Counted from the first letter of the stretch, positions 3,971 to 61,391 are shown. The stretch: 64,000 nt of DNA from Planctomycetota bacterium (GCA_038060895.1 JBBTCT010000001.1:224001-288000); one strand, 5' to 3'. A program made the numbers and translations. Notes: a model not told the origin generated them from the letters alone.

Positions 3971-5095
3971 ATGCCGGCGGAAAAGAAGCCCCAGGCCCTT
4001 CGAATCCGCGCCCTCGACTGGCACCGCGGCCTCGCGGTCCTGGCGATGGTGGAGTGCCACGCGCTTCTCCTCCTCCACCCTTCGCACGAGCAGGAGCCTC
4101 TTCGGCAGTTCCTGAACTCGATCAACGGCCTGATCGCGCCGTCGTTCATCTTCGCGGCCGGGTTCGCGCTCGCGCTCGTCTCGTGCCGCGCGGCGGTGGA
4201 CCCGCAGGGGCGGCGGGAGCGGGCGGTCAAGACGTTGATGAGGATCGGCGAAGTGCTGGTCGTTTCGAGCCTGCTGAAGTGGATGCTGTGGCCCGTACGG
4301 GACGAGCCGTGGCAGTGGCTGCGGATCGACGTGCTGTCGTGTATCGGCTACTCGCTGCTGGCGCTCTGGGCCTGCGTGTTCTCGCTCGGCAACCGCCCGC
4401 GCATCGTCGCGGCCTCGATGGCCGGCGCGGCGACGCTGATCTTTGCGCTGGCGCCGTGGACCGAGTCGCTCCGCGACCTCGGCCTGCTGCAGTTCTTCGT
4501 GAACAACAAGAGCGGCTCCGAGTTTCCCGTTCTCCCGTGGGCGGGCTACGGTTTCCTCGGAGCGTCGCTCGGCGCGCTGGTCTCGATCCCCGAGCGCGGC
4601 GCACGATTCCTCTGGATCCACCTGACGATCATGTTCGTCGCGGGGGTCGCCGTCGCGAACCTCGGCGGCCTCTGGGACCGCATCTATCCCTGGAGCGCCT
4701 GGATTCTCCAGAACGCCGCCGAGCGAGTCTGGAAAGTCGCCGCGATCGCCCTGGCCCTGCGCGGCGCCGAGGCGTTCGGCACCTCCCGCGGCTGGGCGAT
4801 GAAAAACCCGCTCACGAAACTCCTCGAACACTTCGGCCTCAACTCCCTCTCCGGCTACTTCGCCCAGGCCTGCATCCTCTTCGGCAAGTGGATCGCCCTC
4901 CCCTTCGGCCTCTCCTTCGGCGTCACGGGCTTTACCAGGTGGGCCGGACAGTTCCACTGGACCGGTTTCTGGCTGATGACGCTCGTCGCCATCGCGGGCA
5001 CGGGCGCCTTCTGCTGGGCCTGGAACTTCCTGGACCCGCACCTGCCGTGGCGCAAGTCGTCAAAGAAAGCGGCTCCGGCTCCCAAGCCCGCCTAG
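3971..5095 (+). CDS. DUF1624 / heparan-alpha-glucosaminide N-acetyltransferase-like membrane acyltransferase
   Basis: RIRALDWHRGLAVLAMVECH, IAPSFIFAAG, DVLSCIG, FPVLPWAGY motifs; polytopic; ATG 3971 lies 7 nt after TACAAT (ATG 3962 is the alternative). Confidence 0.8.
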   Translation: MPAEKKPQALRIRALDWHRGLAVLAMVECHALLLLHPSHEQEPLRQFLNSINGLIAPSFIFAAGFALALVSCRAAVDPQGRRERAVKTLMRIGEVLVVSSLLKWMLWPVRDEPWQWLRIDVLSCIGYSLLALWACVFSLGNRPRIVAASMAGAATLIFALAPWTESLRDLGLLQFFVNNKSGSEFPVLPWAGYGFLGASLGALVSIPERGARFLWIHLTIMFVAGVAVANLGGLWDRIYPWSAWILQNAAERVWKVAAIALALRGAEAFGTSRGWAMKNPLTKLLEHFGLNSLSGYFAQACILFGKWIALPFGLSFGVTGFTRWAGQFHWTGFWLMTLVAIAGTGAFCWAWNFLDPHLPWRKSSKKAAPAPKPA

Positions 5096-5112
5096 CAGTT
5101 GGCCGTTTTTCC

Positions 5113-5294
5113 GTCCCGGCGTCGGGCGAAGCGGGGGGCGGGCGGAGCGAGGACGAGGGAGGCGGGGAGTCCCGCCCGGGCGGGCCTGCGAAGACCCTGC
5201 TTCAACCTGCGCCGCGGTGGCCCGCACGGGCGTGGGACTCCCCGCCGACCGACGACGAGCGAAGCCCACCCCCCGCTTCGCCCGATGCCGGGAC
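5113..5294. repeat. Long imperfect palindrome (about 180 bp)
   Basis: gtcccggcgtcgggcgaagcggggggcgggc pairs with gcccaccccccgcttcgcccgatgccgggac; inner ggcggggagtccc/gggactccccgcc. Confidence 0.85.
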
Positions 5295-5474
5295 CTCCAC
5301 CTCTGCCGTGAAGAGACTGGTACTGAACCTTTTATTTCAGGGGGGAACGGCCCTCTGGCTTCGTGGATCCCCGCAGGGACCGGATCAGCAGGAGGCACTG
5401 GTGTTCCCTATGAATGTTCGTGGTTCACGCCATGTTCTCGATCACGAACAGCGCAGGGGCCCCGGCGTCGGGCG
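5279..5474 (-). ncRNA. ssrS: Probable 6S RNA
   Basis: Minus strand reads UGAACCACGAACAUUCAUAGGGAAC...GUUCCCCCCUGAAAUAAAAGGUUCA: rod-like hairpin with A/U-rich central bubble closed by UGAACC/GGUUCA and GGGAAC/GUUCCC stems; about 195 nt; ends approximate. Confidence 0.7.
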
Positions 5475-5507
5475 CCGGGAGGGCGAATCCTCAATGAAGA
5501 GGGTGGA

Positions 5508-5516
5508 ATTGTAGCA
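5508..5516 (-). promoter_or_regulatory. Extended -10 element (TGcTACAAT) upstream of the putative 6S RNA
   Basis: Plus strand attgtagca = TGCTACAAT on minus strand. Confidence 0.5.
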
Positions 5517-5554
5517 GAGGGAAGGACGAGTCCATTCTTTCGGAGTTGATCGCT

Positions 5555-8500
5555 CTACGCTTCTTTTGCCTGCGCCGGCGCGGCCTTGATCGCGCGCACG
5601 ATCTCCGACATCCGCGCCTCGTCCGGCAGCGCGTACGGCCGGAACTTCTCGACGGTCCCCGCCTCCTCCACGAACAGCAGTCCCCGGTACAGGCCGAGCT
5701 TCGCCGCCGCGGGCGTGTCGATCAGCTCGGAAGAATCCGAGCCGCTCATCTGGAACAGGATACGGATGCCGAATTCGCGCAGGGTCTTCATGGAGAAGGT
5801 CCGCTTGAGATTGCCCAGCGAGTCGCACCACACAATGCTGAAAATGCCGCGCGACGGCCCCTCGGTCAGGACGTTGACCATGCACTTGTCGGGGGCCGGC
5901 TTGTCGCCTTCGCTGCCCGACATGTCGTACTCATCCCCCTGCCGAAGTTTTCGAAAGCGCTGCAGGTCGTAGACAAATACGTAGATCGGTGGCGCGCCGG
6001 AACCGCCGGTCTCCTCGCGCGCCTTGAGCTCCGCGTCGAGCTCCTCCATGACCTGCGGGACCTTCGCGTACTCGACCATCTCAATCTCGTGCGGCAGCGA
6101 AGCCGCGAGATCCGGGAGGCGCCGCGCGTCGGAAACTTCCGGCGGAGTCCCGTCGAGCACGACGAAGCGCGCCGTCCTCGGCGCGTGGAGCGACGCCAGG
6201 CTGACGATCGTGGACAGGACGACGGCGAGCGATGACTCGCGCTGCTGCCCGACGATCATGAGATTCGAGCCGGCCTGGCGCTGGAAACGCACCTCCGTCG
6301 GCCCCTTGATCGCATTCGCCTCCCCCACCCACGCTCGCGTCGCCACTCCGGTTTCCGCGACGAACGGCCGCGCCAGCCGCTTCCGCAGCAGGTCATTGTT
6401 GCGGATGTCGGAGGGGAGATTCCCTTCGAAGATCGTCGCCGCCTCGCGCGGCTCCCAGCCCGACCGGTCGGTGAGCTGGCGCAATTTCGAGAGGTACTTC
6501 TCCTCGATCTCGTCGGACATCCAGACGACCTGGAAGGGGCTGTTGCCCTCGAGCATGCCGGACATGTCGTTGTAGATCGCTTCGCCGGGCCGCGACAGCA
6601 GGCGCGCGGCGGCGTTGTCGTCGCCGAGGATGAGGAGGGAGTCGGCTTCGTTGCACTGGAGGGCGATGCGGATCCCCATCTGGCCGAGCGTGGCCTTCGC
6701 CAGGGTGTACGAGCCGCCGAGCGTCTGCGAGCCGAGGATGACGTGGACACCGAACGCGCGACCCTGGCGGACGATGCGGTCGAGCATGAGCGCAGCTTCC
6801 TGGGCGGTCGCGTCTTCCTCGGTGAAGAACTCCTGGAATTCGTCGATGAGGAGAAGGGAGCGCGGGAGCTTGGGGCCTTTCCCGTGTTTCCTGTACCCGG
6901 CGAAATCCTGGACACCGGCCGCCCGGTAGAGCTCGGCGCGTTCGCCCAGGTCGCGGTCGATTTTGCGGAGCACGGACAGCCCGAACTCGCGGTCGGACTC
7001 GATGGCGACGACGCGGGCATGGGGAAGGCGGTGGGTCGCGAAGCGCTTGAACTCGACGCCCTTCTTGAAATCGATCAGGTACAGCTCGAGTTCGCTCGGG
7101 TCGTACCACAGGGCCGAGTTGGTGATCATGACGTGGAACAGGGTCGACTTGCCGGAGCCGGTCTTGCCGGCGATGAGCGCGTGCTGCGCGGTGCCCCGGC
7201 CCAGGTCGAGGTACTGCAGCTTGTCGGCCCCGGACCGGCCGAGCGGGATGCGCACGCCGGTCTCGGAACTCTGGCTGCCCCACTGGCCGTCGGGCGGCGC
7301 GACGGTTTCGAACGGGACCTCGACGCGGCCCGCGGCAGCGCACTGCTTGCCGATGGATTGCAGGAGTGGGGTGAGAACGGCCGACTCGGGCGGCGCCTCG
7401 GGCGGGACGACCGCGCGCGGCAGGATTTCCTCGTCGACGGACACGACGTCGTTGGCGATGGAAAGGACAAGGCCGTGGGGGCGGAACCGCGGCGCCGTGA
7501 ACGCAGCGGGGAACTTCTGGCCGCGCTCGTGGAAGAGCAGCGTGAAGACACCGCAGCGGGCTCCGCTGGCGACGATGCCCGCCAGGCGGTCCATCGCCAT
7601 GTCGCTGAAGCCGCGCGGAAAGTCGGCGATGACGAGGAAGCGGTAGGCCTCGGCCATCTGGCCGACTTCGCGGTTGTATTCGTCGATGGAGGCGTAGCGG
7701 TTGCGCAGGTACTTCTGGATGACCTTCTCGATATGCTCGGTCAGCTCGGAGAGTTTCTTCTCGATATGCGCGGGCTCCGTCCAGATCCGCCCGCCGACGA
7801 GCGACTCGTCATCGTCCGCGAGATGCATGAGCGCGGAAAAACTCTGGCCGAGGCCGACCGGGTCCACGAACAGGAACTTCGCCTTCGCGGCGGGAAACGC
7901 CGCGAGCGTCCGGAGCACGGCTCCCGAGACGGTCTCGACCGCCCGCGCGCGGCTTTTCGCATCCGTGCTCACCAGCATGTTCCCGCGCTCGGGGAACGTC
8001 AGCGACAGCGGCAGCGCGAGACGTCCGTTGTCGGGAAGCGAAAACGGTTCCCCGCTCCCCCTCGCCCCCGCGAAGGGACTGAAATCCACGACGGCGTCGC
8101 CCAGGCGGACCGTCGCCGGGAATACCTCCGCCATCCGGTAGTCCCGCCACGAAGAATCGCTCCAGGGCGGAATCTGCTTCAGCCCGTGCGCGCGCGCTTC
8201 TTCCACCGCCTGCATGAACCCGCCGACCGTCTCCGACCAGTCTGCCGCGAGCTTTTGCCGCACCGTCGCGCCCTTCGAGAGAGCCTCGTTCCCGCCCTTC
8301 GACTGCGCGGCGCGGTAGTTCTCCATCTCCTTCCGGTGCCGGTCTTCGGCCGCTCTGGATTCCGCTTCGAAGCGCGTCTCCACGCCAGCCATGCGTTGCG
8401 CATTCCGGCGGCGGACGCGCTCGAGCAACCCCGCGTGCTTCTTCTTCAGCATCTCGATCCGCGGCGCGGCAGCCTTCTTCGCCTCTTCCAGCCCGGTTTC

Positions 8501-9481
8501 CAGCTGCTCGTCAAGATCCGCGACCGCGCCGATCTTGTCTTCCAGCCCCTTCTCGCGGCCCGCCGCGATCCGCTTTCCCACCAGCTCCTCGTGGCTCTTG
8601 AGTTCCGACGTCATTTCAGCGGCGCGGCCGCGAAGGCCGCTGACCAGGTCGCGCGCCTTCGAGCGCAGGGCGTGGAGAGTCGCGAACGCGATGACGAGCG
8701 AGCCGGCGAATACGAGCGGGACCAGCACCGTCGCCCGCTCCTCGAGGTCCGGCCTGAGGAAGTGAATGCCGGCGAAGGCGCCGCCGTGAAGCAACGCCAG
8801 GAGAATGACGGCCGACAGGTAGGAGAAAGTCCGCACCAGGAACAGCCAGAATTCGCGCTTCCGGTACTGCAGGAGGCGCGTCTCCTCGAGAAGCCCCTGT
8901 TTCACCTGGGCGGCAATCTTGTCGGACGCTGCTTCCTGGAAGCGCCCCTGCGCGGCGATGACGTCTTCGGGGCGGACTCTCACGCTGCGGGCAAACACTT
9001 CGACCTCGCCGCGCCATTCCTCCGTTTCTTTCCGGATCGTCACGATTCCTGCGAGCAGCCCGTCCAGCTGCCGGGTCAGCTTCGCCTGCATCTCGTGCAT
9101 CGAATGAAGCGACCGGTCGCGGGCCGTCGCCTGCTCCTTTTTCAGCCGATCGATCTGGCCCGTGAGCTTCCCCTGCGCCCGCTTTGTTGCCGTCTCGAGC
9201 GCCCTGTCCACGGCGGCGAGCCGGCGCGAACCGGCCTCCTGGGCGCGCCGCCGCGCTTCGTCGTGCCGGGCCTTCAGTTCTTTCCGCCGCGCGTCCAGCT
9301 CGCCGGAAAGCTTTGCCGTCGCCTTCGCGAAGGTGTCGTCCTCGTCGCGTTTCTTCCCCGCGGTCCCCCGGTCGGACTCGTCCCGCGCCTCGACGATCTC
9401 CTTCAGCCGCTTCTCGAACTCCGCGACCCGCGCCCGAAGCGCGTCCATTCCCAGCGCCCCCGTGCGGTCGCTCAACTGCAT
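5555..9481 (-). CDS. FtsK/SpoIIIE-family ATPase, EccC/EssC-like (coiled coil, 2 TM, coiled coil, degenerate-active-degenerate ATPase domains)
   Basis: HALIAGKTGSGKST Walker A, LYLIDFKKGVEF, LLLIDEFQE Walker B, RQGRAFGVHVILGSQ; adjacent WXG100 genes. Confidence 0.9.
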   Translation of the reverse strand: MQLSDRTGALGMDALRARVAEFEKRLKEIVEARDESDRGTAGKKRDEDDTFAKATAKLSGELDARRKELKARHDEARRRAQEAGSRRLAAVDRALETATKRAQGKLTGQIDRLKKEQATARDRSLHSMHEMQAKLTRQLDGLLAGIVTIRKETEEWRGEVEVFARSVRVRPEDVIAAQGRFQEAASDKIAAQVKQGLLEETRLLQYRKREFWLFLVRTFSYLSAVILLALLHGGAFAGIHFLRPDLEERATVLVPLVFAGSLVIAFATLHALRSKARDLVSGLRGRAAEMTSELKSHEELVGKRIAAGREKGLEDKIGAVADLDEQLETGLEEAKKAAAPRIEMLKKKHAGLLERVRRRNAQRMAGVETRFEAESRAAEDRHRKEMENYRAAQSKGGNEALSKGATVRQKLAADWSETVGGFMQAVEEARAHGLKQIPPWSDSSWRDYRMAEVFPATVRLGDAVVDFSPFAGARGSGEPFSLPDNGRLALPLSLTFPERGNMLVSTDAKSRARAVETVSGAVLRTLAAFPAAKAKFLFVDPVGLGQSFSALMHLADDDESLVGGRIWTEPAHIEKKLSELTEHIEKVIQKYLRNRYASIDEYNREVGQMAEAYRFLVIADFPRGFSDMAMDRLAGIVASGARCGVFTLLFHERGQKFPAAFTAPRFRPHGLVLSIANDVVSVDEEILPRAVVPPEAPPESAVLTPLLQSIGKQCAAAGRVEVPFETVAPPDGQWGSQSSETGVRIPLGRSGADKLQYLDLGRGTAQHALIAGKTGSGKSTLFHVMITNSALWYDPSELELYLIDFKKGVEFKRFATHRLPHARVVAIESDREFGLSVLRKIDRDLGERAELYRAAGVQDFAGYRKHGKGPKLPRSLLLIDEFQEFFTEEDATAQEAALMLDRIVRQGRAFGVHVILGSQTLGGSYTLAKATLGQMGIRIALQCNEADSLLILGDDNAAARLLSRPGEAIYNDMSGMLEGNSPFQVVWMSDEIEEKYLSKLRQLTDRSGWEPREAATIFEGNLPSDIRNNDLLRKRLARPFVAETGVATRAWVGEANAIKGPTEVRFQRQAGSNLMIVGQQRESSLAVVLSTIVSLASLHAPRTARFVVLDGTPPEVSDARRLPDLAASLPHEIEMVEYAKVPQVMEELDAELKAREETGGSGAPPIYVFVYDLQRFRKLRQGDEYDMSGSEGDKPAPDKCMVNVLTEGPSRGIFSIVWCDSLGNLKRTFSMKTLREFGIRILFQMSGSDSSELIDTPAAAKLGLYRGLLFVEEAGTVEKFRPYALPDEARMSEIVRAIKAAPAQAKEA

Positions 9482-9684
9482 TCCTTTCTCGCCCTGCGCA
9501 GGACTTCCTCGATGCGCTGGATCGCCGTGGTCGCCGTCTTCATCGAAGGGAAAAGCCCAGCCAGGTAGTCGCGCTCAAAGTCGTTGCGCGCGTCGTCGTT
9601 CCAGACGGTGCGCGTCTGCTCCCACTGCGCCTGGAGATCCTTGAGCGCCTTCGCCATGATCGCGTCGTTGCCTCCGCCTTCCAT
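9472..9684 (-). CDS. Small WXG100-like helical protein (W-N-D turn)
   Basis: About 70 aa helical hairpin with central WEQTRTVWNDDARNDFERDY; overlaps both neighbours (TGATG junction). Confidence 0.7.
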   Translation of the reverse strand: MEGGGNDAIMAKALKDLQAQWEQTRTVWNDDARNDFERDYLAGLFPSMKTATTAIQRIEEVLRRARKECS

Positions 9685-10184
9685 CACGCCTTCCCCGGCG
9701 GAATGTGCCCGAAATACTCTTCCAGTTTCTCCACCATCACGTCCAGCCGCGCCAGAGCCCGCGGCGTCGTGCCCTCGAGAAGGATCGAGAAGGCCTTGAG
9801 CGAAGCGAGGGACTTTTCGACCTCGGCGTCAAACAGCACCGCCCATTTCTTCGTCCGCTCGAGCATCGACTCGACCTCCTCCTTCTTCCTCTTCTCACGG
9901 TCCAGCGCTTTCTTCGCGTCGATCGTCGCTTGCGAGGCCTTGCCGGAGGCCGTGAAGCGCGCCCGGTTGTACTCGTTCTGGGCGAGGTTGACCGCATTTT
10001 CGCTGCGGCGCATTTCCTGCTTGAGCTGGACCTGGCGCTCGCCTTTCAGCCATTCGGACGTGCGCTTGATCGACGCATCGACGGCCATCAGGGTGTTGCG
10101 GCAGGTGTTGTCGAACGCGACGTAACGGCCGCGGAAGTGCCGGATGACTTCCGGCGAATCGATGCGTGCGGAGCCCTGGGACAT
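9684..10184 (-). CDS. Coiled-coil protein of the WXG100/FtsK operon (166 aa)
   Basis: Start MSQGSARIDSPEVIRHFR; all-helical and charged; ends LEEYF, like the KEYL of the WXG100; coupled to neighbours. Confidence 0.75.
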   Translation of the reverse strand: MSQGSARIDSPEVIRHFRGRYVAFDNTCRNTLMAVDASIKRTSEWLKGERQVQLKQEMRRSENAVNLAQNEYNRARFTASGKASQATIDAKKALDREKRKKEEVESMLERTKKWAVLFDAEVEKSLASLKAFSILLEGTTPRALARLDVMVEKLEEYFGHIPPGKA

Positions 10185-10191
10185 GGATGCG

Positions 10192-10464
10192 CTACCTCTG
10201 GTCCAGGTACTCCTTGATGCGCTCCGCCTTGCGCAGCAGGAACGGGACGTGCTTGTCGGCGGCGTCCGCAAATTTGGCAAGGGCCCGGATCATCTGCTCG
10301 AACTGCTCCGCGAACTTCGCCTGCTCCTGGTCCTGCCACGTCTCGCCGAGTTTCACGAAACGGTGGTGGAGGGAGGAGATTTCGCCCTTGAGGTCATTAT
10401 TGAAGCGCTTGAGGTCGGCCGCGAAGCGGCGCAGCTCCTCGGGGTCAACGACTGCTCTGGCCAT
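10192..10464 (-). CDS. WXG100/ESAT-6-family protein (W-Q-D variant)
   Basis: 90 aa: VVDPEELRRFAADL N-terminal motif, central LGETWQDQEQAKFAEQF, C-terminal RKAERIKEYL; GGAG upstream. Confidence 0.88.
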   Translation of the reverse strand: MARAVVDPEELRRFAADLKRFNNDLKGEISSLHHRFVKLGETWQDQEQAKFAEQFEQMIRALAKFADAADKHVPFLLRKAERIKEYLDQR

Positions 10465-10564
10465 GGGGGCGGGCTCCGGAAGGATTGCCACTATGTTGAA
10501 TGGGGCGGGGGGGCAAAACAAGGGGGAAGTGGAGGACCCTCTATCGCGGCTGCAAGTTGCGTCG

Positions 10565-10682
10565 TATCCGCGGCTGTTTCCGCGGGATCAGGCTGTTATC
10601 CGCGTATTCCTTTGCCGTTTTTCAAAAGAGAACAAGGGAATACGCGGATAAAAGAATGATTTCGCGGAAACAGCCGCGGATA
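10565..10682. repeat. Long palindrome with internal CGCGGA(T/A)A repeats
   Basis: tatccgcggctgtttccgcg pairs perfectly with cgcggaaacagccgcggata; inner ttatccgcgtattcc/ggaatacgcggataa. Confidence 0.85.
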
Positions 10683-10696
10683 AGGCCGCTTCCGAA

Positions 10697-11806
10697 CTAC
10701 CGACTTCGCCCCGCCGTCCACAAGTAGTAGAACCCGTCCCGTCGTCCCACCAGCTTCTCAATCGACATCGCCACGGCCGCTTCCGGCGACGGCGCCTTTG
10801 AGTCCCCGCGCAGCAGGTCCGCGAACGTCGGCGGCCGCTGATACTGGATCAGCCTCGCGTCCTTGACGCCCGCCAGGTTCTTCGCCACTTCGACCGCGTC
10901 TTCGAACTGTCCCAGCTCGTCGACGAGCCCGTTCGCCTTCGCCTGCCCCCCGGAGTAGATCCTGCCGTCGGCGAGCAGCCGCACTTTCTTCTCGTCCATT
11001 CCCCGTCCCTTCGACACGACGTCCACGAAGCGGTCGTACATCTCCATCAGCATCGACTGGAGCATGGCGCGTTCTTCATCCGTCATGGGGCGCCCCATCG
11101 AGCCGATGTCCTTGTGATCGCCGCTCTTGATGACCTCTTCCTTCACTCCGACTTTCTCAAACAGGCCCTGGAGATTCATGAAGGACATGATCACGCCGAT
11201 GGACCCCGTGATCGCGGTGGGGCTGGCGAGAATCCGGTCGCAGGGAGCCGAGACGTAATAGCCGCCCGAAGCCGCGACGGAACGCATGTAGGACACGAAC
11301 TTGAGGTTCGGGCGCTCTTTCTTGAGCTTCATGATTTCGTAGTGGATCCGGTCGCAATCCGTGATGCCTCCGCCGGGCGAGTCGACGTCGAGGATGACGG
11401 CGACGATGCTGGAGTCGTCTTTCACGCGCCTCAGGTCCTTGATGATCTTGTCGACCATGTCCACGTTCGGGCCGAAGAGGGACGCCGAGCCGGAGGCGAT
11501 GATTCCGTGGACGGGAATGACGGCGATTTTGTTGTCCGAACCCGCGGGCCCGTCCACGTGTCTCTCTACGGTGCCGTCGGCCTGGAATCCGCCCGCGCCG
11601 CCGAGGGCGCCGAGCAGCATGAGGAACATGACCACGTTCAGGCCCAGGCTGCCGATGAGGGTGAGAGTCATCAGGCAGGAGCCGATTCCGAACCCGGCAC
11701 GCCTCGTCGGAGGCTGAGGCGGCAGCGACGGCCACGAGCCCATGGGGGGAGGAGGAGCTCCCGGGGGAAGCGGTCCCTGGGGCGGCGGTGCGGCAGGATC
11801 GCTCAT
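10697..11806 (-). CDS. sppA: Signal peptide peptidase SppA (S49, short type)
   Basis: [47 protein letters not shown]. Confidence 0.95.
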
Positions 11807-43478: not shown

Positions 43479-44479
43479 CGGAAGCGCCGTTCTCGATGAA
43501 GCTCGTCGCTGCCGGGCTGATCCCCGACGCAGTCGTCCGCTGGAAGATTCGCGGCCTGCTCGCAGTGCGGCTGCGCGAAGAGAGCGCCCGCAATCCCGCC
43601 GAGCTCGTGAAGCAGCTCGACGCTTCGCCGATTGCCGTCAACACGACGGACGCGAACGAGCAGCACTACGAGGTGCCGCCGCGGTTCTTCGAACTGGTGC
43701 TGGGGAAGCGACTGAAGTATTCGAGTGCGCTCTTCGAGGGCGCCGCCGGCCTCGACGAGGCGGAGGAGCGGATGCTCGCGCTGTACGTCGAGCGCGCCCA
43801 GCTTGCCGACGGCCAGCGCATCCTCGACATGGGCTGCGGCTGGGGTTCGCTCTCGGTCTATCTCGCGGAGCGCTTCCCGAACGCCCGGATCCTCGGCGTG
43901 TCGAACTCCCGCGACCAGAAGGAGTTCATCGACAGTCGCGGCCACGCGAACCTCGAAATCCGAACCGTGGACATGAACGCGTTCGACCCCGGGGAGAAGT
44001 TCGACCGCATCGTGTCGATCGAGATGCTCGAGCACATGCGCAACTACCGGAAGCTCTTCGCGCGCATCGCGTCGTGGATGGAACCGGACGCGCGGTTTTT
44101 CGTGCACGTGTTCACGCATCGCGAGTTCGCGTACCCGTTCGAAGTGCGCGACGAGACCGACTGGATGGCGAAGTTCTTTTTCACGGGCGGGATGATGCCG
44201 TCGCACGGTCTGCTGCCGTCGTTCCAGGACGACCTCGCCTGCGCGCAGGACTGGAAGATTAATGGACTTAACTATTCCCGCACCGCGGAAGCCTGGCTCG
44301 CCAACCAGGACCGCCACCGCGACGACATCCTGGAGCTCTTCCGCAAGCCGTACGGCGCCGGCGCGCCGCTCCGCTTCGCCATGTGGCGCGTCTTCTTCAT
44401 GTCCTGCGCCGAGCTCTGGGGATACCGGGGCGGCGAAGAGTGGGGCGTGTCGCACTACCTGTTCCGCCGGGCGACCTAG
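43475..44479 (+). CDS. Second Cfa-family SAM methyltransferase (coclaurine N-methyltransferase-like)
   Basis: ANEQHYEVP, LKYSS, LDMGCGWGS, SIEMLEHMRNY, FFTGGMMPS, WRVFFMSCAELWG. Confidence 0.92.
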   Translation: MTEAPFSMKLVAAGLIPDAVVRWKIRGLLAVRLREESARNPAELVKQLDASPIAVNTTDANEQHYEVPPRFFELVLGKRLKYSSALFEGAAGLDEAEERMLALYVERAQLADGQRILDMGCGWGSLSVYLAERFPNARILGVSNSRDQKEFIDSRGHANLEIRTVDMNAFDPGEKFDRIVSIEMLEHMRNYRKLFARIASWMEPDARFFVHVFTHREFAYPFEVRDETDWMAKFFFTGGMMPSHGLLPSFQDDLACAQDWKINGLNYSRTAEAWLANQDRHRDDILELFRKPYGAGAPLRFAMWRVFFMSCAELWGYRGGEEWGVSHYLFRRAT

Positions 44480-47385
44480 GCCGGCGGAAGTTCGGATCGC
44501 GCCGGCATGCAAAGGCGGAAACCGTGCTGGCGGAAGGTCGTGCCGGGCTCGGCGGACCACACGCGCGCGACCTGGGACGTGTACCAGGACCCGATCCAGA
44601 ACCCGCCGCGCAGGCAGAATTCGTGGTGCAGTTCCCCCTCGGTGGCAGTCCAGCACCACGTCAGGATGTTCCCGGCGAGGTCCATCCCGCCGTAGGGCGA
44701 GCAATCGACCGGATAGGACCCGACGGGCATGAGGTGCGCCCGGTCGCGGTGCGTGGCGTTCGTGTTCGAGAAGGTCGCGTCGAACGAATCGCCCCACGGG
44801 TAAATGCGGGCATCGACGCCGCGCGCCGCCTTCTCGAATTCGAAATCGGTCGGGAGGCGGAAGAGCCGGCCGTCCCGGTCGGAGCGCCACGCGGCGTACG
44901 CGACGGCGTCGCCCCACGAAACGCCGCCGACGGGCAGGTCGGGGCGCGTGTGGTACGCGTCGGGCGCGTCGGCGGGCTGCAGCTCAAAGCGCCCTTCCCG
45001 TTCGACCACGAGCGGCAGCTCGCGCTCGCGAGGCCGCCGCTTCCGCGCTTCGTCAATCCGCCCGGTCCCGGCGAGCACGTTCAGGTAGTCGACATATTCC
45101 CCGGCCGTGACCGGATACTTCGCGATGAAGAAATCCTCGGCGTGGCCCCGCCTCTCGGGACGGGGAGCGCCGCCGCGTCGCCCGCCGAGAGTGAACGGGC
45201 CAGCGGTGACGTAGACGAATCCCTCGGGGATCTCCTCCGGCCGGTAGAGCGCGACCTGCTGCTCCCAGCGACCTTCGCGCGCGAGGAGCACGGGCACAAT
45301 CGCCGTGGCGTAAACCGGATGCCGGACCTCGAGTCGCCACGAGCCGGCGGGAAGCGGAGCGTCCGCGAGAGGCGTGACGCCGATCCGGCGGGACTCGCGC
45401 AGCACGAGCCGGCGGTCCTCCTCTTCGTATTTCGCCGCCCAGACCTCGGCCCCGGCGACGTCGGTCGTGGGACAACGGTCCCCGTGGCCAAAACTCGCGC
45501 CCCGCGGCTCCAGGCGCATCACCGGGGAAGGCCGCTCGTCCGCGGTCGCAGCTTCCCCGTACTCGGGACGCCCCTCGCGCCACGGAACCTTCGGCTTCTC
45601 CCCCGGCCGCGAATGCCACGCTCCCGGCGCCGGGCGCAGACACCGGCACTCCCTCGCGAAAGCCCGGATCGTTACACGCCCCGGCGCCGCCAGCCTCGCC
45701 GCGTGGCGCCCGCCCCGGTCATGCCGCTCCAGCGACTGGCGCTGCAGAAGCGCCTCATCCGCATCCCGCGCCGCCTCGGCTTCCACGAGCCGGTCGTACG
45801 CCAGTTCGCACGCGCCTTCGGCAGCCGCTTCGCTGAAAGGATCGTCGCGAAGCGCGGTATCGAACGACGCGCCGGCGCGTGAGAACGCGCGGATGCGCTC
45901 CTCGCGAAGCCGCCGGTGCGCGTCCTCCGCGTCCCAGATCCGGCGTTTGCGGTCGAGCGGCTCCCAGGGCCGCGTCTCCTCCATCAACCGCTCGACCTTC
46001 GCCTGCGCCTCGCGCGCCTCGACGCCAAGCTCGCGCCAGCGGCGGTGGTGCTCGCGCCCCTCATCCACGCGCTTCGCCGCTTCCCTGCGCAGGCGGTCGC
46101 GCTCGGCGACGCCGTCGAGGAAGCGCTGGACGTCGGCGTGGAGGTCGAGGACGGCGGGGTACCGGTCTTCGCGGCGGAGCGAGAGAGCGCGGAGGCAGAC
46201 GGCCTCCAGGTCGGGGGGCACGGGATCCGCGTCGCGGAACGTGCGTGCGGTGGTCGCGCGAATCGCGCGCGGCGGCGTGATGCGCCCCTCGCGGGCGCGC
46301 GTCAGGACTTCTTCAACCGTCTTGCCGTCGACCGGCGGACGCAGAGTGAGGATCTCGTAGAGAATCGCGCCGAGCGCGTAGACGTCGGTGCGCTCGTCGA
46401 CCACGTCGTTGCGGCCGGAGGCCTGTTCCGGAGACATGTAAGCAGGGGTCCCGATGAGCGCGCCGTCGATCGTGAGCCCGACTTCCTCGGGCGCCGCGAC
46501 GCCGGCGACCGCCTCTTGTTCCGGCTCCCCCTTGACTCTCGCGAGTCCCCAGTCCACCACGTACACCTCGCCGAAGTCCCCGACCATCACGTTCGACGGT
46601 TTCAGATCGCGGTGCAGCACGCCCCTCGAATGGGCGAACGCAATCCCCAGGCACGCGCTCTGGAAGGCCCCCAGCAGCCGAGTGCGCGGCCACGCTGCCC
46701 TCGCCTCCTCCTTCCCCGCCGCGAGATCCTCGAGAATCGCCTTCATGTCCCGACCCCGCACCCGCTTCATCGCCAGGAACGGCCGCTTCTCGCCCTTGGC
46801 GCCCACCATCGTCCCGAAATCGTGCACCGGCACGATCTGAGGATGCTCCAGCCGCGCCGTGACCATCGCTTCGCGCACAAACCTCTCCGTCAACGCCGGC
46901 GAAAGGTCGTCGATCACGATCTTGACCGCGACCTCGCGCCCGAGCCTCCGGTCCTCCGCCAGCACGACCCGCCCGATGCCCCCGCGGCCTATTTCGGCGC
47001 CGAGGCGGTAACGCGAAGCGTCGGCAGCTGTGGAGTCTGGGAGGACGGACGGGCGGACGGGGGTTCTCCCTGCGGCCGCGAGCGTCTGGGCCACGACGTC
47101 GCCGACGACTGTGCCCTGCAGCGACTCGCTCGCCACGGCGTCGGCCGCCGCCGCCGCCAGCGAAGCGGCCTCATCCCCCCCGTGCCGGCGGATCCTCGCA
47201 TCGAGCAACGCCTTCACCGCGCCCCGCTCCGCTTCCCGAAGCGCCTTGCGCTCCACCAGCATCGCGCCGATGTCCGCTCCCGGCCGCTCGATCGCTTCCG
47301 GCACGCACGCGATGAGATCCTCGCGCGACACGAGGTCCATCTGGAGCGCGAGGAGGGCGAAGAGAAGGTTGGCGTCGCGGGTCAA
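44476..47385 (-). CDS. Ser/Thr protein kinase fused to a C-terminal FGE-sulfatase (SUMF1) domain
   Basis: GRGGIG, VAVK, HRDLKPSN, DWGLA, GTPAYMSPEQ; C-terminal KYPVT, RLPTDFEFEKAARG, YPWG, DLAGN, GFR. Confidence 0.92.
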   Translation of the reverse strand: MTRDANLLFALLALQMDLVSREDLIACVPEAIERPGADIGAMLVERKALREAERGAVKALLDARIRRHGGDEAASLAAAAADAVASESLQGTVVGDVVAQTLAAAGRTPVRPSVLPDSTAADASRYRLGAEIGRGGIGRVVLAEDRRLGREVAVKIVIDDLSPALTERFVREAMVTARLEHPQIVPVHDFGTMVGAKGEKRPFLAMKRVRGRDMKAILEDLAAGKEEARAAWPRTRLLGAFQSACLGIAFAHSRGVLHRDLKPSNVMVGDFGEVYVVDWGLARVKGEPEQEAVAGVAAPEEVGLTIDGALIGTPAYMSPEQASGRNDVVDERTDVYALGAILYEILTLRPPVDGKTVEEVLTRAREGRITPPRAIRATTARTFRDADPVPPDLEAVCLRALSLRREDRYPAVLDLHADVQRFLDGVAERDRLRREAAKRVDEGREHHRRWRELGVEAREAQAKVERLMEETRPWEPLDRKRRIWDAEDAHRRLREERIRAFSRAGASFDTALRDDPFSEAAAEGACELAYDRLVEAEAARDADEALLQRQSLERHDRGGRHAARLAAPGRVTIRAFARECRCLRPAPGAWHSRPGEKPKVPWREGRPEYGEAATADERPSPVMRLEPRGASFGHGDRCPTTDVAGAEVWAAKYEEEDRRLVLRESRRIGVTPLADAPLPAGSWRLEVRHPVYATAIVPVLLAREGRWEQQVALYRPEEIPEGFVYVTAGPFTLGGRRGGAPRPERRGHAEDFFIAKYPVTAGEYVDYLNVLAGTGRIDEARKRRPRERELPLVVEREGRFELQPADAPDAYHTRPDLPVGGVSWGDAVAYAAWRSDRDGRLFRLPTDFEFEKAARGVDARIYPWGDSFDATFSNTNATHRDRAHLMPVGSYPVDCSPYGGMDLAGNILTWCWTATEGELHHEFCLRGGFWIGSWYTSQVARVWSAEPGTTFRQHGFRLCMPARSELPPA

Positions 47386-50265: not shown

Positions 50266-50389
50266 GCAGGGACGATAGCCCAGCCCCCCGGACCGCGCCA
50301 CAGCGGTCCCGGCGGCGCCGATCGTGAAGAGAAAGTGAAGAGTCCATGAGCGGGGCGACGGGGCGCCGAAGCGCGTGTATCATGCGCCG

Positions 50390-51346
50390 ATGGACCTCGA
50401 ATTCCCGAGGCAGGTCCTCCAGACCGAAGCGGACGCAATCCGCTCGCTTGTCTCCCGCCTCGACCAGACCTTCGGCGAGGCCGTGCGGCTGATCCTCGGC
50501 TGCAAGGGCCATGTCGTGGTCACGGGGATGGGGAAAGCCGGGCTGGTGGGGCAGAAAATCAGCGCGACCCTCGCGTCCACGGGGACGCCCTCGCTCTTTC
50601 TCCATCCCGCCGAGGCGATTCACGGGGACCTCGGCCGCGTGACGCGCGACGACGTCGTCCTCGCCCTCTCGAACAGCGGCGAAACCGAGGAAGTCGCGCG
50701 GCTGCTGCCTCTTCTCAAGGAATTCGGCACGAAGATCCTCGCGATCACCGCCGCCGCCACTTCGACGCTCGGACGCGGGGCCGACATTACGCTCGCGATG
50801 GGGAAAATTGAGGAAGCCTGCCCGATCGGGCTCGCGCCCAGCGCCTCGACGACGGCGCTTCTCGCCCTCGGCGACGCGCTCGCTCTCTCGGTGCAGAAGG
50901 AGCGCGGCTTTACGAAGGAGCAATTCGCGTTCTACCACCCGGCCGGCGAGCTGGGACGAAAGCTTCAGCGCGTGTCGGACGTCATGAGGACCGGTGAACG
51001 GGCCCCGGAGATCGGCGAGAAACACGGGGTGGCCGAAGCCATCTCCCTCATCACGAAGGCGCGGGCGGGGGCGATCAGCGTGACGGACGCTTCCGGGAAG
51101 CTGTCGGGAATCTTCACTGACGGCGACCTGCGGAGGCGGATCTCCCTCGACGCGGACGTGCTGAAAAAGCCGATCGGCGAGCTCATGACGAAGAACCCGA
51201 AAACCATCAGGCCGGACCAGCTGGCGAGCGAAGCGCTGTTCCTGCTGCGCGAGAAGAAGATCGATGAGATTCCGGTCGTGGGCGCGGACGGGAAGCCCGT
51301 GGGGATGGTGGACGTGCAGGACCTTCTCGACATGGGACTGGTCTAG
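50390..51346 (+). CDS. kdsD: Arabinose-5-phosphate isomerase (KdsD/GutQ, SIS + CBS)
   Basis: GMGKAG..KISATLASTGTP, AEAIHGDLG, SNSGET, HPAGELG, GIFTDGDLRR. Confidence 0.95.
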   Translation: MDLEFPRQVLQTEADAIRSLVSRLDQTFGEAVRLILGCKGHVVVTGMGKAGLVGQKISATLASTGTPSLFLHPAEAIHGDLGRVTRDDVVLALSNSGETEEVARLLPLLKEFGTKILAITAAATSTLGRGADITLAMGKIEEACPIGLAPSASTTALLALGDALALSVQKERGFTKEQFAFYHPAGELGRKLQRVSDVMRTGERAPEIGEKHGVAEAISLITKARAGAISVTDASGKLSGIFTDGDLRRRISLDADVLKKPIGELMTKNPKTIRPDQLASEALFLLREKKIDEIPVVGADGKPVGMVDVQDLLDMGLV

Positions 51347-51350
51347 GCCC

Positions 51351-53888
51351 ATGCGCCGCTGGATCGCCGTTTTCCTTGCGGCCTTTATCCCGCCCACGGC
51401 GGTCATGGTGTTCTTCGCCTGGAGGGCGCAGGCGCCTCGCGGAAACGGCGACGACAGCCCGCTGGTCACCATTTCAAAGAAGGGGCTGCCGATCGGGACG
51501 GCGCGCGGCGTCGCGATCGTCGTGTACGAAGGCGACCGGATGGTCGCGGAGATCACGGGGGCCGAAGCGCAGATCGAGGGCCGGGATCGCGCGGTGTTCA
51601 CGGACGCCGTGATCCGTGCGTGGCCGGAGAAGAGCGACAACCCGCGCCAGCCCGAGGAAGTCACGATCCGGGCGCGCCGCGCGGAGATCGACCGCGAGGG
51701 GTTCGTGGCGCGCGTCATCGGAAACGTTCTCGTCGCCACTCCCGAGGGCGACACACTGCGCGCGGAGGATCTGAAGATCCTCTTTGGGAAGCGGATCCAG
51801 CAGGAGGACGGAAAGGAAATCGTGGATCGCTCGGAGAAGACGATCGACAGCCGCGGCCCCGTCGAGCTCGCGAGCGGTGACTCGGTGCTTCGTGGCACCG
51901 GGTTTCACGGCAACCTGGCCCTCAAGTCGTTCCGCTTCGACAGGGCCGTTTCAGGAACCTTCTTCGGCACCTCCGCGGATTTCGCGGCGACGGCGGCCTC
52001 GCGCACTTCGCGCAAACCCGAGGACGTGACCTTTCACGCCGGCGGCCCCGTGACGGGAGAACCGCTGGAATCCGAAGGCAAGACGCGCCGGACGCGGCTC
52101 GTGATGGCAGGCGGCGTTGAAGTCCTGCGGATCGACGCGGAGACGGAGAAGCCGACGCGGATGCGCTGCGGGACGGCGACCGCGGACATTCGTCGCCGGA
52201 CTCCCCCTCCGCCCGCATGGTTCCCGGCCTGGGAAGCATCGGAAGCGCTGGCCCGGTCGATGGGAATGGAACTGCAAAAACCCGCGGAGGTTGCCGCGAT
52301 CCGGCCGCCGCATCCGCGCGTCAGCCTGGAAAGGCTGTTGGCCGAGGGCGGCGTTGCCGTCCAGGACCCGCGGGTCAATCTCGAGGCCGAGTCGCTGGAG
52401 ACCGTGAATGCCGAGGACGGAAGCGGCGTGACGACGCTCCGGGGGCCCAAAAAGCGCCTGGAGTTCCACGACCGCGGCGCGATGTCCCTGGGGCCGATGG
52501 GAGACGCCGGGGCGGGCCCGAAGGAGGTCACGGCGATGGACGACATCCGCATCGTGCGCGCGGCGGACGGCGCGGACGGGGAGCCCGGACCTGCCACGAT
52601 CGGGCTCTCGCGATGGGTCTGGGTCCGCGAGGGCGCGCGCGAGTTGACCTGCGACTCGATGCGCCTCGACCTGGCGCCGGACGCTGCGCCGGCAACCGGC
52701 GGCAAGAAGTCCGGATTCGGGTACGCCCCGAGTTCGCTGGCGGCGACCGGCAACGTCATCGTGAAGGAACCCGGGCAAAGCGCCCGCGCCGACACGCTTT
52801 CGTGGAACGCCGCCGAGGACACCGTCACGCTTCTCAGCGATGCAGGCGCCGAAGTCGTTCTCCCGGACAAGCGCCTGGTTGCGAAAAAAATCCTCTTCGA
52901 CAACAAGACCAGCCGCATCACCTGCCGCGGAAACGTGGTCGCTTCCGGCGAAGGCGGAGGATTTGTGCCCACCTCGCTGATCGAACTGAATACCGAATCC
53001 GGCGCTTCCGGCGGCCCCTGGGAACTGCGCTGCCCGGAATTTACGGGGGTCATGACGAAGGAGCAGGAGTGCCTGGACGCCATGGGCCCGGTCACGCTCA
53101 CGACGGACACCACCACGGCGGCGGGGGATGCACTTCACTACGAGAAAAACCACGTCGTGTTGACCGGCCGTCCTGCCCGGATCGTGTCGGGGAAGGACAT
53201 CGTCGAGGCGTGGGAGATCGCGCTCGCTCCCGACACGGGCCGGGCTGTGCTGCGCGGCGTGAAGGAGATCCGCTTCCACATGAACGGCGGCCTCGGGGGC
53301 CTGGCCGGTCTGGCGCCGTCGCGGCCGGCTACCGCGGGTGGGGACGCGGAGGCGCCGACGCCCGTCATCCTCACGTGCAGCGGCCCGGTCGTCATCGACC
53401 GCGATGCCGGGATGTTCATTGCTCGCGACTGCGTCCTCGTGCGCTCGCCCGAGTCGGCCGCCGTCCCCGGAAAGCCGCCTCCGCCGCTCGCCCGCCTCGA
53501 GGCCGATCGCGTCTGGATTCACTTTGAACCCCAGACCCGCGAGCTCCTCGGCGCCATTGCCACCGGCCGCGTCCGCCTCCGGTCCTCTTCGCTCATCGCC
53601 GCCGGCGACCGGCTGACCTACGACGTCCCGACCGGGACCGCCGCCTTCACGGGCATCGGCAAACCCCTGTTCGCAAACGCCAGGGACGGCTCTTCGGTTC
53701 GCGTGGACGAAGTCCAGGTCGCCGACGGCGGCCGCACCTTAAAATTCCTCGCCCGGCACTCAAAGGGTAGTATCTCGTTCCCTGAAGGCCCCGCCCAGGA
53801 TCGACCCGGCAACTTCCTTCAGAATCCGTTCGGAAACCTGAAGCCGAAACCGAAGAAGGATCCGCCGGCCGACAAGCCGCCGAAGTGA
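51351..53888 (+). CDS. Large N-terminally anchored LptC/LptA(OstA)-like repeat protein
   Basis: Single TM then repeated jellyroll-like motifs (AEGGV, ATGNVIV..ARADTLSWN, AGDALHY, ATGRV..GDRLTYD); directly after kdsD. Confidence 0.65.
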   Translation: MRRWIAVFLAAFIPPTAVMVFFAWRAQAPRGNGDDSPLVTISKKGLPIGTARGVAIVVYEGDRMVAEITGAEAQIEGRDRAVFTDAVIRAWPEKSDNPRQPEEVTIRARRAEIDREGFVARVIGNVLVATPEGDTLRAEDLKILFGKRIQQEDGKEIVDRSEKTIDSRGPVELASGDSVLRGTGFHGNLALKSFRFDRAVSGTFFGTSADFAATAASRTSRKPEDVTFHAGGPVTGEPLESEGKTRRTRLVMAGGVEVLRIDAETEKPTRMRCGTATADIRRRTPPPPAWFPAWEASEALARSMGMELQKPAEVAAIRPPHPRVSLERLLAEGGVAVQDPRVNLEAESLETVNAEDGSGVTTLRGPKKRLEFHDRGAMSLGPMGDAGAGPKEVTAMDDIRIVRAADGADGEPGPATIGLSRWVWVREGARELTCDSMRLDLAPDAAPATGGKKSGFGYAPSSLAATGNVIVKEPGQSARADTLSWNAAEDTVTLLSDAGAEVVLPDKRLVAKKILFDNKTSRITCRGNVVASGEGGGFVPTSLIELNTESGASGGPWELRCPEFTGVMTKEQECLDAMGPVTLTTDTTTAAGDALHYEKNHVVLTGRPARIVSGKDIVEAWEIALAPDTGRAVLRGVKEIRFHMNGGLGGLAGLAPSRPATAGGDAEAPTPVILTCSGPVVIDRDAGMFIARDCVLVRSPESAAVPGKPPPPLARLEADRVWIHFEPQTRELLGAIATGRVRLRSSSLIAAGDRLTYDVPTGTAAFTGIGKPLFANARDGSSVRVDEVQVADGGRTLKFLARHSKGSISFPEGPAQDRPGNFLQNPFGNLKPKPKKDPPADKPPK

Positions 53889-59230: not shown

Positions 59231-59839
59231 ATGGTCGACCGCGCGCTCAAGCCGGACTGGAATCGCCTCTACGAATTCGCCGCTTCGCAGGAAGGCCACT
59301 TCACATCCGCCCAGGCCGGCGATGCAGGCTACTCCCCGCAACTGCTCCAGAAGCACCTCAAGGGAGGACGCATCCGACGCCTCGGCCGCGGCATCTATCG
59401 TGTCGTCCACTATCCCGCCGGGGACCACGAAGACCTGGTCGCGGCCTGGCTCTGGAGCGGCCACTCCGGGGTCTTCAGCCACGAAACGGCGCTGGCCCTC
59501 CACGAACTTTCGGACGCGATGCCGACCGCGATTCACATGACTGTGCCCGCGCGATGGGCAGGGCGGCGCCTGCGAGTTCCTCAAGGACTGCTGCTCCACC
59601 ACGCCGACATCGCCGAGAAGGAAAGAGGCTGGGTTGGATCGGTCCGTGCTACGACGGTCCCCAGGACCCTGGTCGATTGCGCCGCATCCAGCGTCGAGCC
59701 CCGCCTTGTCCTGCAGGCCTTCGAGGACGCCCTCGCCCGGGGGCTTGTCGACCGCGGATCGATCCCGGCTGTCGTCGCTTACCTGAATGGCTTTTTCCCG
59801 GCCTCGCGGCCCGCAAGGGTCCGGAGGTCGTCGCCATGA
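59231..59839 (+). CDS. Type IV TA antitoxin AbiEi
   Basis: AASQEGHFTSAQA, RRLGRGIYR, FSHETALALHELSD, TTVPRTLVD. Confidence 0.9.
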   Translation: MVDRALKPDWNRLYEFAASQEGHFTSAQAGDAGYSPQLLQKHLKGGRIRRLGRGIYRVVHYPAGDHEDLVAAWLWSGHSGVFSHETALALHELSDAMPTAIHMTVPARWAGRRLRVPQGLLLHHADIAEKERGWVGSVRATTVPRTLVDCAASSVEPRLVLQAFEDALARGLVDRGSIPAVVAYLNGFFPASRPARVRRSSP

Positions 59840-60735: not shown

Positions 60736-60743
60736 TCCGCGGG

Positions 60744-60998
60744 CTACGCCGATTCGTGCGTGGGCACTCCGTCCATCCAGAGCGCGTCAGCACAAAGGTC
60801 GAGGCCGTCAGGCCACTCGACGTACCTGCCGTCCGGGGCCACGCGGGCAGACTTGAAGTAGTCGGTCCTCGCGAGCGGCGAATAAACGCCGCCCTTTTTC
60901 AGAAGCGGCTCAAGGTCGAAGGCGCGCGTGCTCCCGTCATCGAAAGTCAGCCGCAACGACAGACCCTCGCCGAGTTCAAGCCGCGTGATTTTGTGCAT
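60744..60998 (-). CDS. DUF2442 protein (start could be GTG 61007)
   Basis: LRLTFDDG, VEWPDGLDLCADAL. Confidence 0.85.
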   Translation of the reverse strand: MHKITRLELGEGLSLRLTFDDGSTRAFDLEPLLKKGGVYSPLARTDYFKSARVAPDGRYVEWPDGLDLCADALWMDGVPTHESA

Positions 60999-61020
60999 AT
61001 CCTGCACGATTTCGGACCTC

Positions 61021-61281: not shown

Positions 61282-61391
61282 GCGAAGTTCTCCTTGAGGT
61301 AGCAGGGGAACCGCGCATGCCATCATGAGCGCGCCGCAGAATCAACCCGTCGACCCGGCTTTACCGACTCCTGTCGAAGCGCGAACTGTCT

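Follow-up and report, generated by a model that had tools for sequence, protein, structure and literature searches.

A stand-alone WXG100 and EssC-like ATPase module in Planctomycetota and Verrucomicrobiota, a probable distant cousin of type VII secretion systems

A four-gene operon encoding two small WXG100-type proteins (A and C), a helical hairpin protein (B) and an FtsK/EssC-like ATPase (D) has been analyzed at positions 5555-10464 of a DNA stretch of 64,000 nucleotides (nt), hereafter the window, from a Planctomycetota bacterium (GCA_038060895.1 JBBTCT010000001.1:224001-288000). There is little doubt that it represents a chromosomal, stand-alone module of a solo WXG100 protein with a three-domain EssC-like ATPase, distantly related to the type VII secretion systems (T7SS) and inherited largely vertically in Planctomycetota and Verrucomicrobiota. 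The system is real and widespread, which confirms the observation made in an earlier note on this DNA, the interpretation of which is supported in part; as a kind, it has already been described. That note had considered it a candidate for an undescribed system, a claim that has to be withdrawn in view of what is reported in parts of two papers (Bell et al. 2024, PMC11090510; Zhang et al. 2012, PMC3482391). A table footnote of the latter (Table 1, footnote 6) places solo WXG proteins with a distinct YueA-like ATPase in lineages including planctomycetes and verrucomicrobia. This ATPase is described in the same paper as having three HerA/FtsK domains, with activity confined to the middle one, and the solo-WXG modules are termed apparently mobile T7SS versions (Zhang et al. 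2012). An EssC-like ATPase module was found beside Type III-A CoCoNuT loci, and also stand-alone elsewhere. In the account given there the ATPase has three domains and activity in the central one alone, together with an N-terminal coiled coil of more than 200 residues and no transmembrane helices. Its partners are two WXG100 proteins, one of them without WxG, a coiled-coil-nuclease fusion and a DNA-mimic-like protein (Bell et al. 2024). A literature search found no paper testing the function of the module in any diderm.

The four open reading frames (ORFs) lie head to tail in the order A-B-C-D on the minus strand (Table 1). Checking of the sequence showed that the operon, its coordinates, the gene lengths and the WQD and WND motifs had been given correctly in the earlier note. 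The tight coupling of the genes claimed there was also found: 7 nt lie between A and B, and C shares 4 nt (GTGA) or 1 nt with B, depending on its start, and 10 nt with D. There is no additional gene between B and C in the window, and a second copy of A, B, C or D was not found there. A gap of 232 nt separates A on its 5' side from a peptidase S49 (SppA-type) gene, and the next protein gene 3' of the operon is convergent. The flanks of the operon in the window consist of housekeeping genes, G+C is even along the operon, and no integrase or transposase family was met among the window ORFs scanned. Members of the EccB/D/E, MycP, EssA/B and EsaA families were likewise absent among these ORFs, and none appeared as a conserved neighbour within 8 kb in related loci, in agreement with the earlier statement that no T7SS membrane partner is encoded nearby. 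The host had also been supposed to possess a lipopolysaccharide (LPS) outer membrane. This premise of an LPS diderm is backed by the sequence because a KdsD-type gene, coding for a SIS and two CBS domains, and an LptC/LptA-like gene, the start of which is overlapped by the KdsD-type gene, are present in the window. Indeed, a WXG100/FtsK-type module of four genes is found here in an organism with LPS-transport genes. The Lpt protein itself is an unusually long fusion of 874 amino acids (aa), with an LptC match at residues 47-233 and an LptA/LptD_N match at residues 580-658.

Conservation of the module was studied by scanning one genome per species, which yielded at least 600 pattern matches and at least 502 confirmed relatives of D; the best 79 loci were examined. 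By record title these loci comprise 47 from Verrucomicrobiota, 21 from Planctomycetota, 1 from Lentisphaerota and 10 with another label or none. A profile search of all ORFs in the 79 loci detected A in 66, B in 68 and C in 71. Informative loci were defined as those with a full D ORF and at least 1500 nt upstream of it, which left 65 loci after 14 had been set aside because of a contig end or the lack of a long D ORF. In 61 of these 65 the genes occur as A-B-C-D, in the same order and on one strand; the other four are without A, or without A and B, at E ≤ 1e-3. The overlap between B and C is exactly 4 nt in 44 of the 61 ordered loci. The hidden Markov model searches and gene-neighbourhood survey across relatives that had been proposed thus found the four-gene order conserved. 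For the survey of neighbours, 5738 ORFs of at least 70 aa, located within 8 kb in the 79 loci, were clustered. The twelve most widespread families turned out to be the four genes themselves or ORFs overlapping them in another frame or on the opposite strand; the first independent neighbour family was present in only 8 of the 79 loci, and none was conserved. Because the order is kept and no other neighbour family is conserved, the four genes make up a self-contained cassette whose surroundings vary.

Phylogenetic analysis of the three-domain region of D (FastTree, 71 rows, local support only, root uncertain) placed every row with a Planctomycetota label to the same side of one branch and the plasmid proteins, discussed below, on very long branches. 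The agreement of the tree with phylum labels, the housekeeping flanks and the even G+C fit a mainly vertical descent in the Planctomycetota-Verrucomicrobiota-Chlamydiota (PVC) group. The closest named relatives of D are encoded by Planctomycetota metagenome-assembled genomes (MAGs), with up to 89 % identity, and 7634 relatives with E ≤ 0.001 were counted among 8000 scored. Several MAGs titled Klebsiella, Bifidobacterium, Acidobacteriota or Bacteroidetes (loci L024, L025, L028, L042, L049 and others) were found nested inside Verrucomicrobiota. These titles are probably binning or naming errors and not real hosts, because the ATPases concerned nest on short branches within that phylum.

Protein A is a member of the WXG100 family, scoring 43.2 bits against the Pfam WXG100 model (cut-off 27.3). 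Its alignment is highly conserved, with a mean column identity of 74 %, and all 67 sequences have W43 and D45. The best match of the A profile in the PDB is HP0062 of Helicobacter pylori (3fx7, 2gts; E 1.6e-11 over 88 residues), followed by EsxB and EsxA chains. The WxD of A aligns with the WRD of HP0062 and with the W-x-G position of the EsxA/EsxB chains. Protein C remains below the WXG100 cut-offs (Pfam 14.8 bits, E 0.036; TIGR03930 25.5 bits, E 1.1e-5). In its alignment W28 and D30 are invariant (71 of 71 sequences), the C profile matches A proteins with E ~1e-4, and comparison of C with A by hhalign (E 3.3e-4, probability 38 %) puts the WxD motifs in register. On account of these three observations C is probably, as judged from its sequence, a short and divergent WXG100-type paralogue of A. 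The WxD turns noted earlier in both proteins are thus real and invariant, and W-x-G is absent from the hairpin turn of A as well as of C. A complex prediction of A and C with B as partner gave a score of 0.75, and the control in which chain 1 was replaced gave 0.79. Searching longer proteins with the A profile, which is weak evidence, returned 38 matches, nearly all of 159-312 aa with a WXG100 domain only and judged to be over-long gene calls; no toxin fusion was seen among them, and the few odd fusions were located on short contigs. None of the PADLOC 2.0 models showed a meaningful match to A, B or C.

Protein B could not be assigned to a family of Pfam, NCBIfam or PADLOC and has no match to a nuclease family. 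Its AlphaFold2 model (mean predicted local distance difference test score, pLDDT, 92.4) is one hairpin formed by helices 11-78 and 85-159. The B family comprises 3118 representative clusters at E ≤ 1e-3, and its members are almost always stand-alone proteins of 165-230 aa; a search of proteins of 378-2000 aa with the B profile, again weak evidence, was negative. No meaningful match of the B profile to PDB sequences was obtained, and the hhalign comparison of B with A was not significant. Longer forms of B (335-367 aa) carry a C-terminal Imm33-like domain (PF24719) in 5 of the 7 tested. In an Atlas cluster of the B family with 433 members, mostly from Planctomycetota where the phylum is known, 64 % contain this domain.

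The ATPase D passes the Pfam FtsK_SpoIIIE threshold with 104.2 bits, and EccCa, EccCb and EssC are its best NCBIfam matches. By sequence only residues ~730-966, which lie in the middle domain, resemble known FtsK-type domains, and this stretch matches each of the three ATPase domains of EccC. The other two domains of D are recognized by comparison within the protein: the third (residues 1001-1300) aligns with the second (736-1000) by hhalign at 97.7 % (E 2.3e-12), and the first aligns with the third at 94.1 % (E 1.2e-7). The first domain is also folded in the AlphaFold2 model, with pLDDT mostly 80-93. Walker motifs are kept in the middle domain only, and residues G772, T774, G775, S776, G777, K778, S779, D880 and E881 are invariant in the family. 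For residues 431-1308 the model has a pLDDT of 86.3, and its top fold match is the cytoplasmic domain with three ATPase domains of Thermomonospora curvata EccC (4nh0, E 4.3e-32), followed by two-domain fragments of EccC and EssC and then by FtsK and TcpA. The N-terminal region gave a consensus that is mostly undefined (x) and weak matches of the Apolipoprotein and ZorA types only; residues 275-430 are similarly charged and poorly conserved. Between these regions two hydrophobic segments (Kyte-Doolittle values of 2.14 and 2.28 in 19-residue windows) are separated by a short loop and carry basic residues at both ends, and therefore both termini of D are predicted to be cytoplasmic with a short loop outside. 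Among 68 long relatives, two such segments occur in the first 450 residues in 54, one in 9 and none in 5. The proteins without a segment form one Prosthecobacter-type clade, in which A, B and C are kept at four of the five loci; at the fifth (L044) only C was found (E ≤ 1e-3). This clade is a natural experiment on the need for the anchor.

The mechanism that we favour, tentatively and at somewhat less than an even chance, is export of helical bundles formed by A, B and C into the periplasm, driven by D. It is favoured because of the membrane anchor, the EccC-like fold, the WXG100-type clients and the parallel with T7SSb, in which toxins have been described to be exported in complex with small WXG100-like partners (as far as covered in PMC9600955). 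The gene order kept in 61 of 65 informative loci, the lack of another conserved neighbour and the relationship of A to HP0062 are also in its favour. Gene content, its conservation, the domains and the state of their motifs, the hairpin fold of B and the EccC-like fold of D are shown by the analysis; what we infer concerns the hexamer, the topology, the identity of the clients and the export step. D would form a hexamer in the cytoplasmic membrane, anchored there through the two-helix hairpin, and its N-terminal region would be on the cytoplasmic side, as would the ATPase domains. ATP would be hydrolyzed by the middle domain alone, and the two degenerate domains might serve as scaffold and as client-binding sites, as do the non-catalytic domains of EccC/EssC. 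The clients would be the three co-translated helical hairpins: A, probably a homodimer resembling HP0062; C, a short WXG100-like partner; and B, a hairpin with ~70 residues per arm, which may occupy the operon slot of the coiled-coil or helical nuclease effectors of mobile relatives. The hexamer would then push the folded helical bundles through the cytoplasmic membrane into the periplasm; for an outer-membrane step the locus contributes no gene.

Several points weigh against such export. Secretion has been shown for no member of this kind, and the turn of the small proteins is WxD, not WxG. D scores far under the NCBIfam cut-offs for its best matches (TIGR03924, 103.1 vs 509.15; TIGR03925, 100.3 vs 346.55; TIGR03928, 80.9 vs 778.4). 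Its periplasmic portion would comprise only ~10-20 residues, and nearby genes for an outer-membrane or periplasm-spanning part are lacking. The membrane hairpin was lost cleanly in the Prosthecobacter-type clade (5 of 68 relatives of D), and among the three plasmid ATPases analyzed a single weak hydrophobic segment is present in two and none in the third. These cases also weigh against the idea of the earlier note that the ATPase's own membrane hairpin may take the place of the membrane partners. The Imm33-like domain on some B proteins, named for an immunity-protein family, would be an odd export cargo. Finally, a mechanism not of the EssC type is considered likely for versions without transmembrane helices in the part of the work by Bell et al. 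(2024) dealing with them.

The strongest alternative, possible but on the unlikely side, is a non-secretory machine at the cytoplasmic face, in which D unfolds, assembles or releases bundles of A, B and C within the cell or on the inner side of the membrane, as part of defence or of a response to stress. Its PVC version would have lost or replaced the nuclease effector and would have an output acting on the membrane. Such a machine is suspected for relatives without transmembrane helices beside CoCoNuT, TerY-P and Ter loci, and the doubt expressed by Bell et al. (2024) is of a similar nature. It is favoured by relatives in defence or stress contexts, such as those on the Caballeronia and Rhodococcus plasmids. 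A protein search of plasmids found a few relatives of the three-domain ATPase. A Helicobacter plasmid encodes, in this order, an A-like protein, a WHH nuclease, a SUKH immunity protein, a 77-aa protein in the slot of C and an ATPase of 823 aa. On a Caballeronia plasmid the order is VWA, WXG100, proteins of 436, 113 and 76 aa and an ATPase of 927 aa, and 3' of the latter lie CARF, VWA, PP2C, kinase and AAA genes. In a Rhodococcus plasmid (L081 4426-9856) the ATPase carries an N-terminal TerD fusion, with TerD genes close by. Here the small genes follow the ATPase in reverse order, encoding a B-like protein of 314 aa, one of 73 aa with WRD and a WXG100 protein of 87 aa with WKD. The N-terminal half of the 314-aa protein resembles B (hhalign 82.7 %, E 9.5e-6); the comparisons of B with the B-slot proteins of Helicobacter (E 0.12) and Caballeronia (E 0.014, probability 3 %) were not significant. 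From these gene orders the B slot in mobile versions holds effector-like proteins, and this slot content, like the B-like half of the Rhodococcus protein, counts in favour of export. The weakness or lack of a hairpin in the plasmid ATPases, the loss of the hairpin in the Prosthecobacter-type clade with retention of the genes, and the B-Imm33-like fusions point in the non-secretory direction. However, 63 of the 68 PVC ATPases retain one or two membrane segments, and no nuclease, immunity or sensor gene is conserved within 8 kb of the PVC loci. Matches to PADLOC 2.0 models are confined to the generic ATPase stretch of D (SspH, 78 bits; mad8; HerA). The housekeeping flanks and the lack of integrase or transposase families among the ORFs scanned also argue against a defence role, and the tracking of phylum labels by the family is more in keeping with a core function than with a shuffled defence island.

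The other explanations are less likely. Improbable is the export of antibacterial toxins encoded elsewhere, with A and C as targeting partners and B as adaptor for WXG-type polymorphic toxins. Such a function would suit the nuclease and SUKH immunity genes between the A-like and C-like genes of the Helicobacter plasmid, the many toxin families listed as 'T7SS (WXG)', with a spread including planctomycetes, in Table 2 of Zhang et al. (2012), and the SUKH-1 gene of the window. However, the searches of longer proteins with the A and B profiles provided no toxin fusion, weak as that evidence is, and no conserved toxin/immunity pair accompanies the PVC module. A role in membrane remodelling or repair, with B as a hairpin of the PspA/Vipp1 (ESCRT-III) type and D as its remodelling ATPase, is very improbable. 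The top Foldseek match of the B model is indeed a Vipp1/PspA chain (6zvr, E 0.072), with several more Vipp1 entries in the list, and D is predicted to be anchored in the membrane. Nevertheless, no match of B in the PDB reached E ≤ 0.001, and the list also contains chemoreceptors, SMC coiled coils, YscO and efflux adaptors, so that any long hairpin appears to match. Moreover, the predicted B structure is without the further helices of ESCRT-III proteins, and its profile has no counterpart of note in the PDB. That D is a DNA translocase for cell division or conjugation (a true FtsK, SpoIIIE or TraB type), as suggested by its Pfam family and by public records labelling relatives 'DNA segregation ATPase' or 'cell division protein FtsK', is scarcely credible given 19 bits against the NCBIfam FtsK model NF007615 (cut-off 1566), best sequence and fold matches to EccC and EssC, two of three domains that are catalytically degenerate, a constant coupling of the gene to WXG100-type proteins and no relaxase or partition genes conserved nearby in the 79 loci.

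Features of the window and of related loci that were located in the analysis are listed in Table 1. A scan of positions 5000-11000 found no promoter-like site, and terminator-like sites were no commoner than in shuffled sequences. The gap between the SppA-type gene and A is filled by an imperfect inverted repeat (10565-10682) with arms of 50 nt that are 88 % complementary and 18 nt apart; its arm occurs once in the window. As RNA this region has a folding energy of -99.7 kcal/mol (z-score -8.85), and 0 of 200 shuffled sequences were equally stable. The repeat may act as a terminator that has no T-run, or as a site at which the operon is regulated. Rfam microRNA matches on this hairpin were rejected, as any long hairpin produces them. 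Just 3' of D, on the same strand (5290-5462, minus), a full-length match to the 6S/SsrS model (model positions 1-187) was found below threshold (38.6 bits vs a gathering score of 46.4, E 2.6e-5), and the relative with 89 % identity has a match in the same place (L001 12319-12491, 38.9 bits). By its sequence the element is probably a divergent planctomycete 6S RNA. At some distance from the operon a small conflict-type gene cluster (59231-61988) coincides with a drop of G+C to 0.617. The window also encodes a 969-aa protein (44476-47385, minus strand) in which a Ser/Thr protein kinase is combined with a C-terminal FGE-sulfatase (sulfatase-modifying-factor-like) domain.

Table 1 Positions of the operon, of the parts of its ATPase and of other features in the window and in related loci
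Feature	Position	Strand	Description
Gene A	10192..10464	-	90 aa; WXG100 family; W43-Q-D45 instead of WxG; WQD at 10330-10338
Gene B	9684..10184	-	166 aa; no named family; modelled as a single long two-helix hairpin
Gene C	9472..9684 (ATG, 70 aa) or 9472..9687 (GTG, 71 aa)	-	WXG100-like; WND at 9595-9603
Gene D	5555..9481	-	1308 aa; FtsK/EssC-like ATPase
D residues 1-210	8852..9481	-	Charged, poorly conserved N-terminal region; presumed coiled coil
D residues 213-269	8675..8845	-	Two hydrophobic segments with short loop; predicted membrane hairpin
D residues 441-735	7277..8161	-	First FtsK-like domain, without Walker motifs
D residues 736-1000	6482..7276	-	Middle FtsK-like domain, the sole one with Walker A and B
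Walker A of D	7145-7168	-	GKTGSGKS, middle domain
Walker B of D	6839-6853	-	LLIDE, middle domain
D residues 1001-1308	5558..6481	-	Third FtsK-like domain; degenerate P-loop (IVGQQRES), no Walker B acid pair
Hairpin-less ATPase ORFs	L027, L044, L050, L054, L062		1205-1215 aa
B-Imm33-like examples	L015 5648-6712; proteins P0284, P0297, P0302, P0307
KdsD-type gene	50375-51346		SIS and two CBS domains
LptC/LptA-like gene	51264-53888		874 aa
AbiEi antitoxin-like regulator	59231-59839		Conflict-type cluster
DUF2442	60744-61082		Conflict-type cluster
SUKH-1/SMI1-KNR4 immunity-type protein	61392-61988	-	Conflict-type cluster

Studies of type VII secretion have, to our knowledge, been confined to Actinomycetota and Bacillota. 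The role of the many accessory T7SS membrane proteins is still debated there, and a module consisting of an ATPase and three small helical clients only would be the cleanest system for asking what the ATPase can do alone. At least several hundred PVC genomes, counted at the species level, retain the module (at least 502 confirmed matches). If the favoured reading of export is true, the module is an unrecognized route into the large periplasm of planctomycetes. In a bolder version, which we regard as rather doubtful, it is an ancient, vertically inherited one-machine route of Planctomycetota and Verrucomicrobiota, in which an EssC-like hexamer uses its own twelve membrane helices as the channel and moves folded A, B and C to the periplasm without accessory proteins. 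This would make it the simplest of the type VII-like secretion systems, and a route independent of Sec and Tat that is specific to the PVC cell plan. If D is not an exporter, WXG100/EssC pairs have a non-secretory function, and 'T7SS-like' annotations outside Gram-positives and beside defence loci need rereading. The record titles of the relatives include the cultured genera Prosthecobacter, Singulisphaera, Chthoniobacter, Luteolibacter and Limisphaera, and therefore these possibilities can be tested by ordinary genetics.

Compared with known systems, the module is closest to the solo-WXG module as far as that is described by Zhang et al. (2012) and Bell et al. (2024). Shared features are the solo WXG100 protein A, the second WXG100-like protein C without WxG, a coiled-coil or helical protein between the two and an ATPase that has a long N-terminal extension and three FtsK/HerA domains, the central one alone being active; planctomycetes and verrucomicrobia are also among the lineages named in the footnote of Zhang et al. 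(2012). It departs from these descriptions in the membrane hairpin of the window D, in a B without nuclease domain, in its housekeeping flanks and in a family tree that tracks phylum labels. From the CoCoNuT-linked form, as presented by Bell et al. (2024), it differs in having neither a nuclease fusion on B nor an inhibitor-like gene between B and C, and in the hydrophobic segments, one or two in number, of the window D and 63 of 68 relatives. HP0062, according to the portion of the structural study that covers it, is a dimeric helix hairpin resembling ESAT-6, with WRD at the bend and its gene clustered with an FtsK/SpoIIIE gene (PMC3397514), and the pair HP0062/HP0066 has been named a minimal type VII set (PMC4978471). 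The A profile match and the FtsK-family partner HP0066 make this pair similar to the module, although it belongs to another phylum. The Helicobacter plasmid locus is different in having WHH nuclease and SUKH genes in the B slot, and its ATPase has neither the 430 N-terminal residues nor any clear membrane hairpin.

The canonical T7SS, that is ESX (T7SSa) of Actinomycetota and Ess (T7SSb) of Bacillota, differ from the module in several respects. No EccB/D/E, MycP, EssA/B or EsaA was detected among the scanned ORFs of the window, D has no FHA domains and stays far under the EccC/EssC equivalog cut-offs, the turn is WxD in place of WxG, Walker motifs are limited to the middle domain, a long extension precedes the anchor and the host has an LPS-type outer membrane. 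Yet the similarities concern the core of these systems: a WXG100 hairpin protein beside a multi-domain FtsK-family ATPase with a predicted membrane anchor, a two-helix anchor on that ATPase, three tandem FtsK-like domains and a fold closest to EccC/EssC. As in T7SSb, where LXG toxins are accompanied by small partners, small helical proteins flank a longer helical protein.

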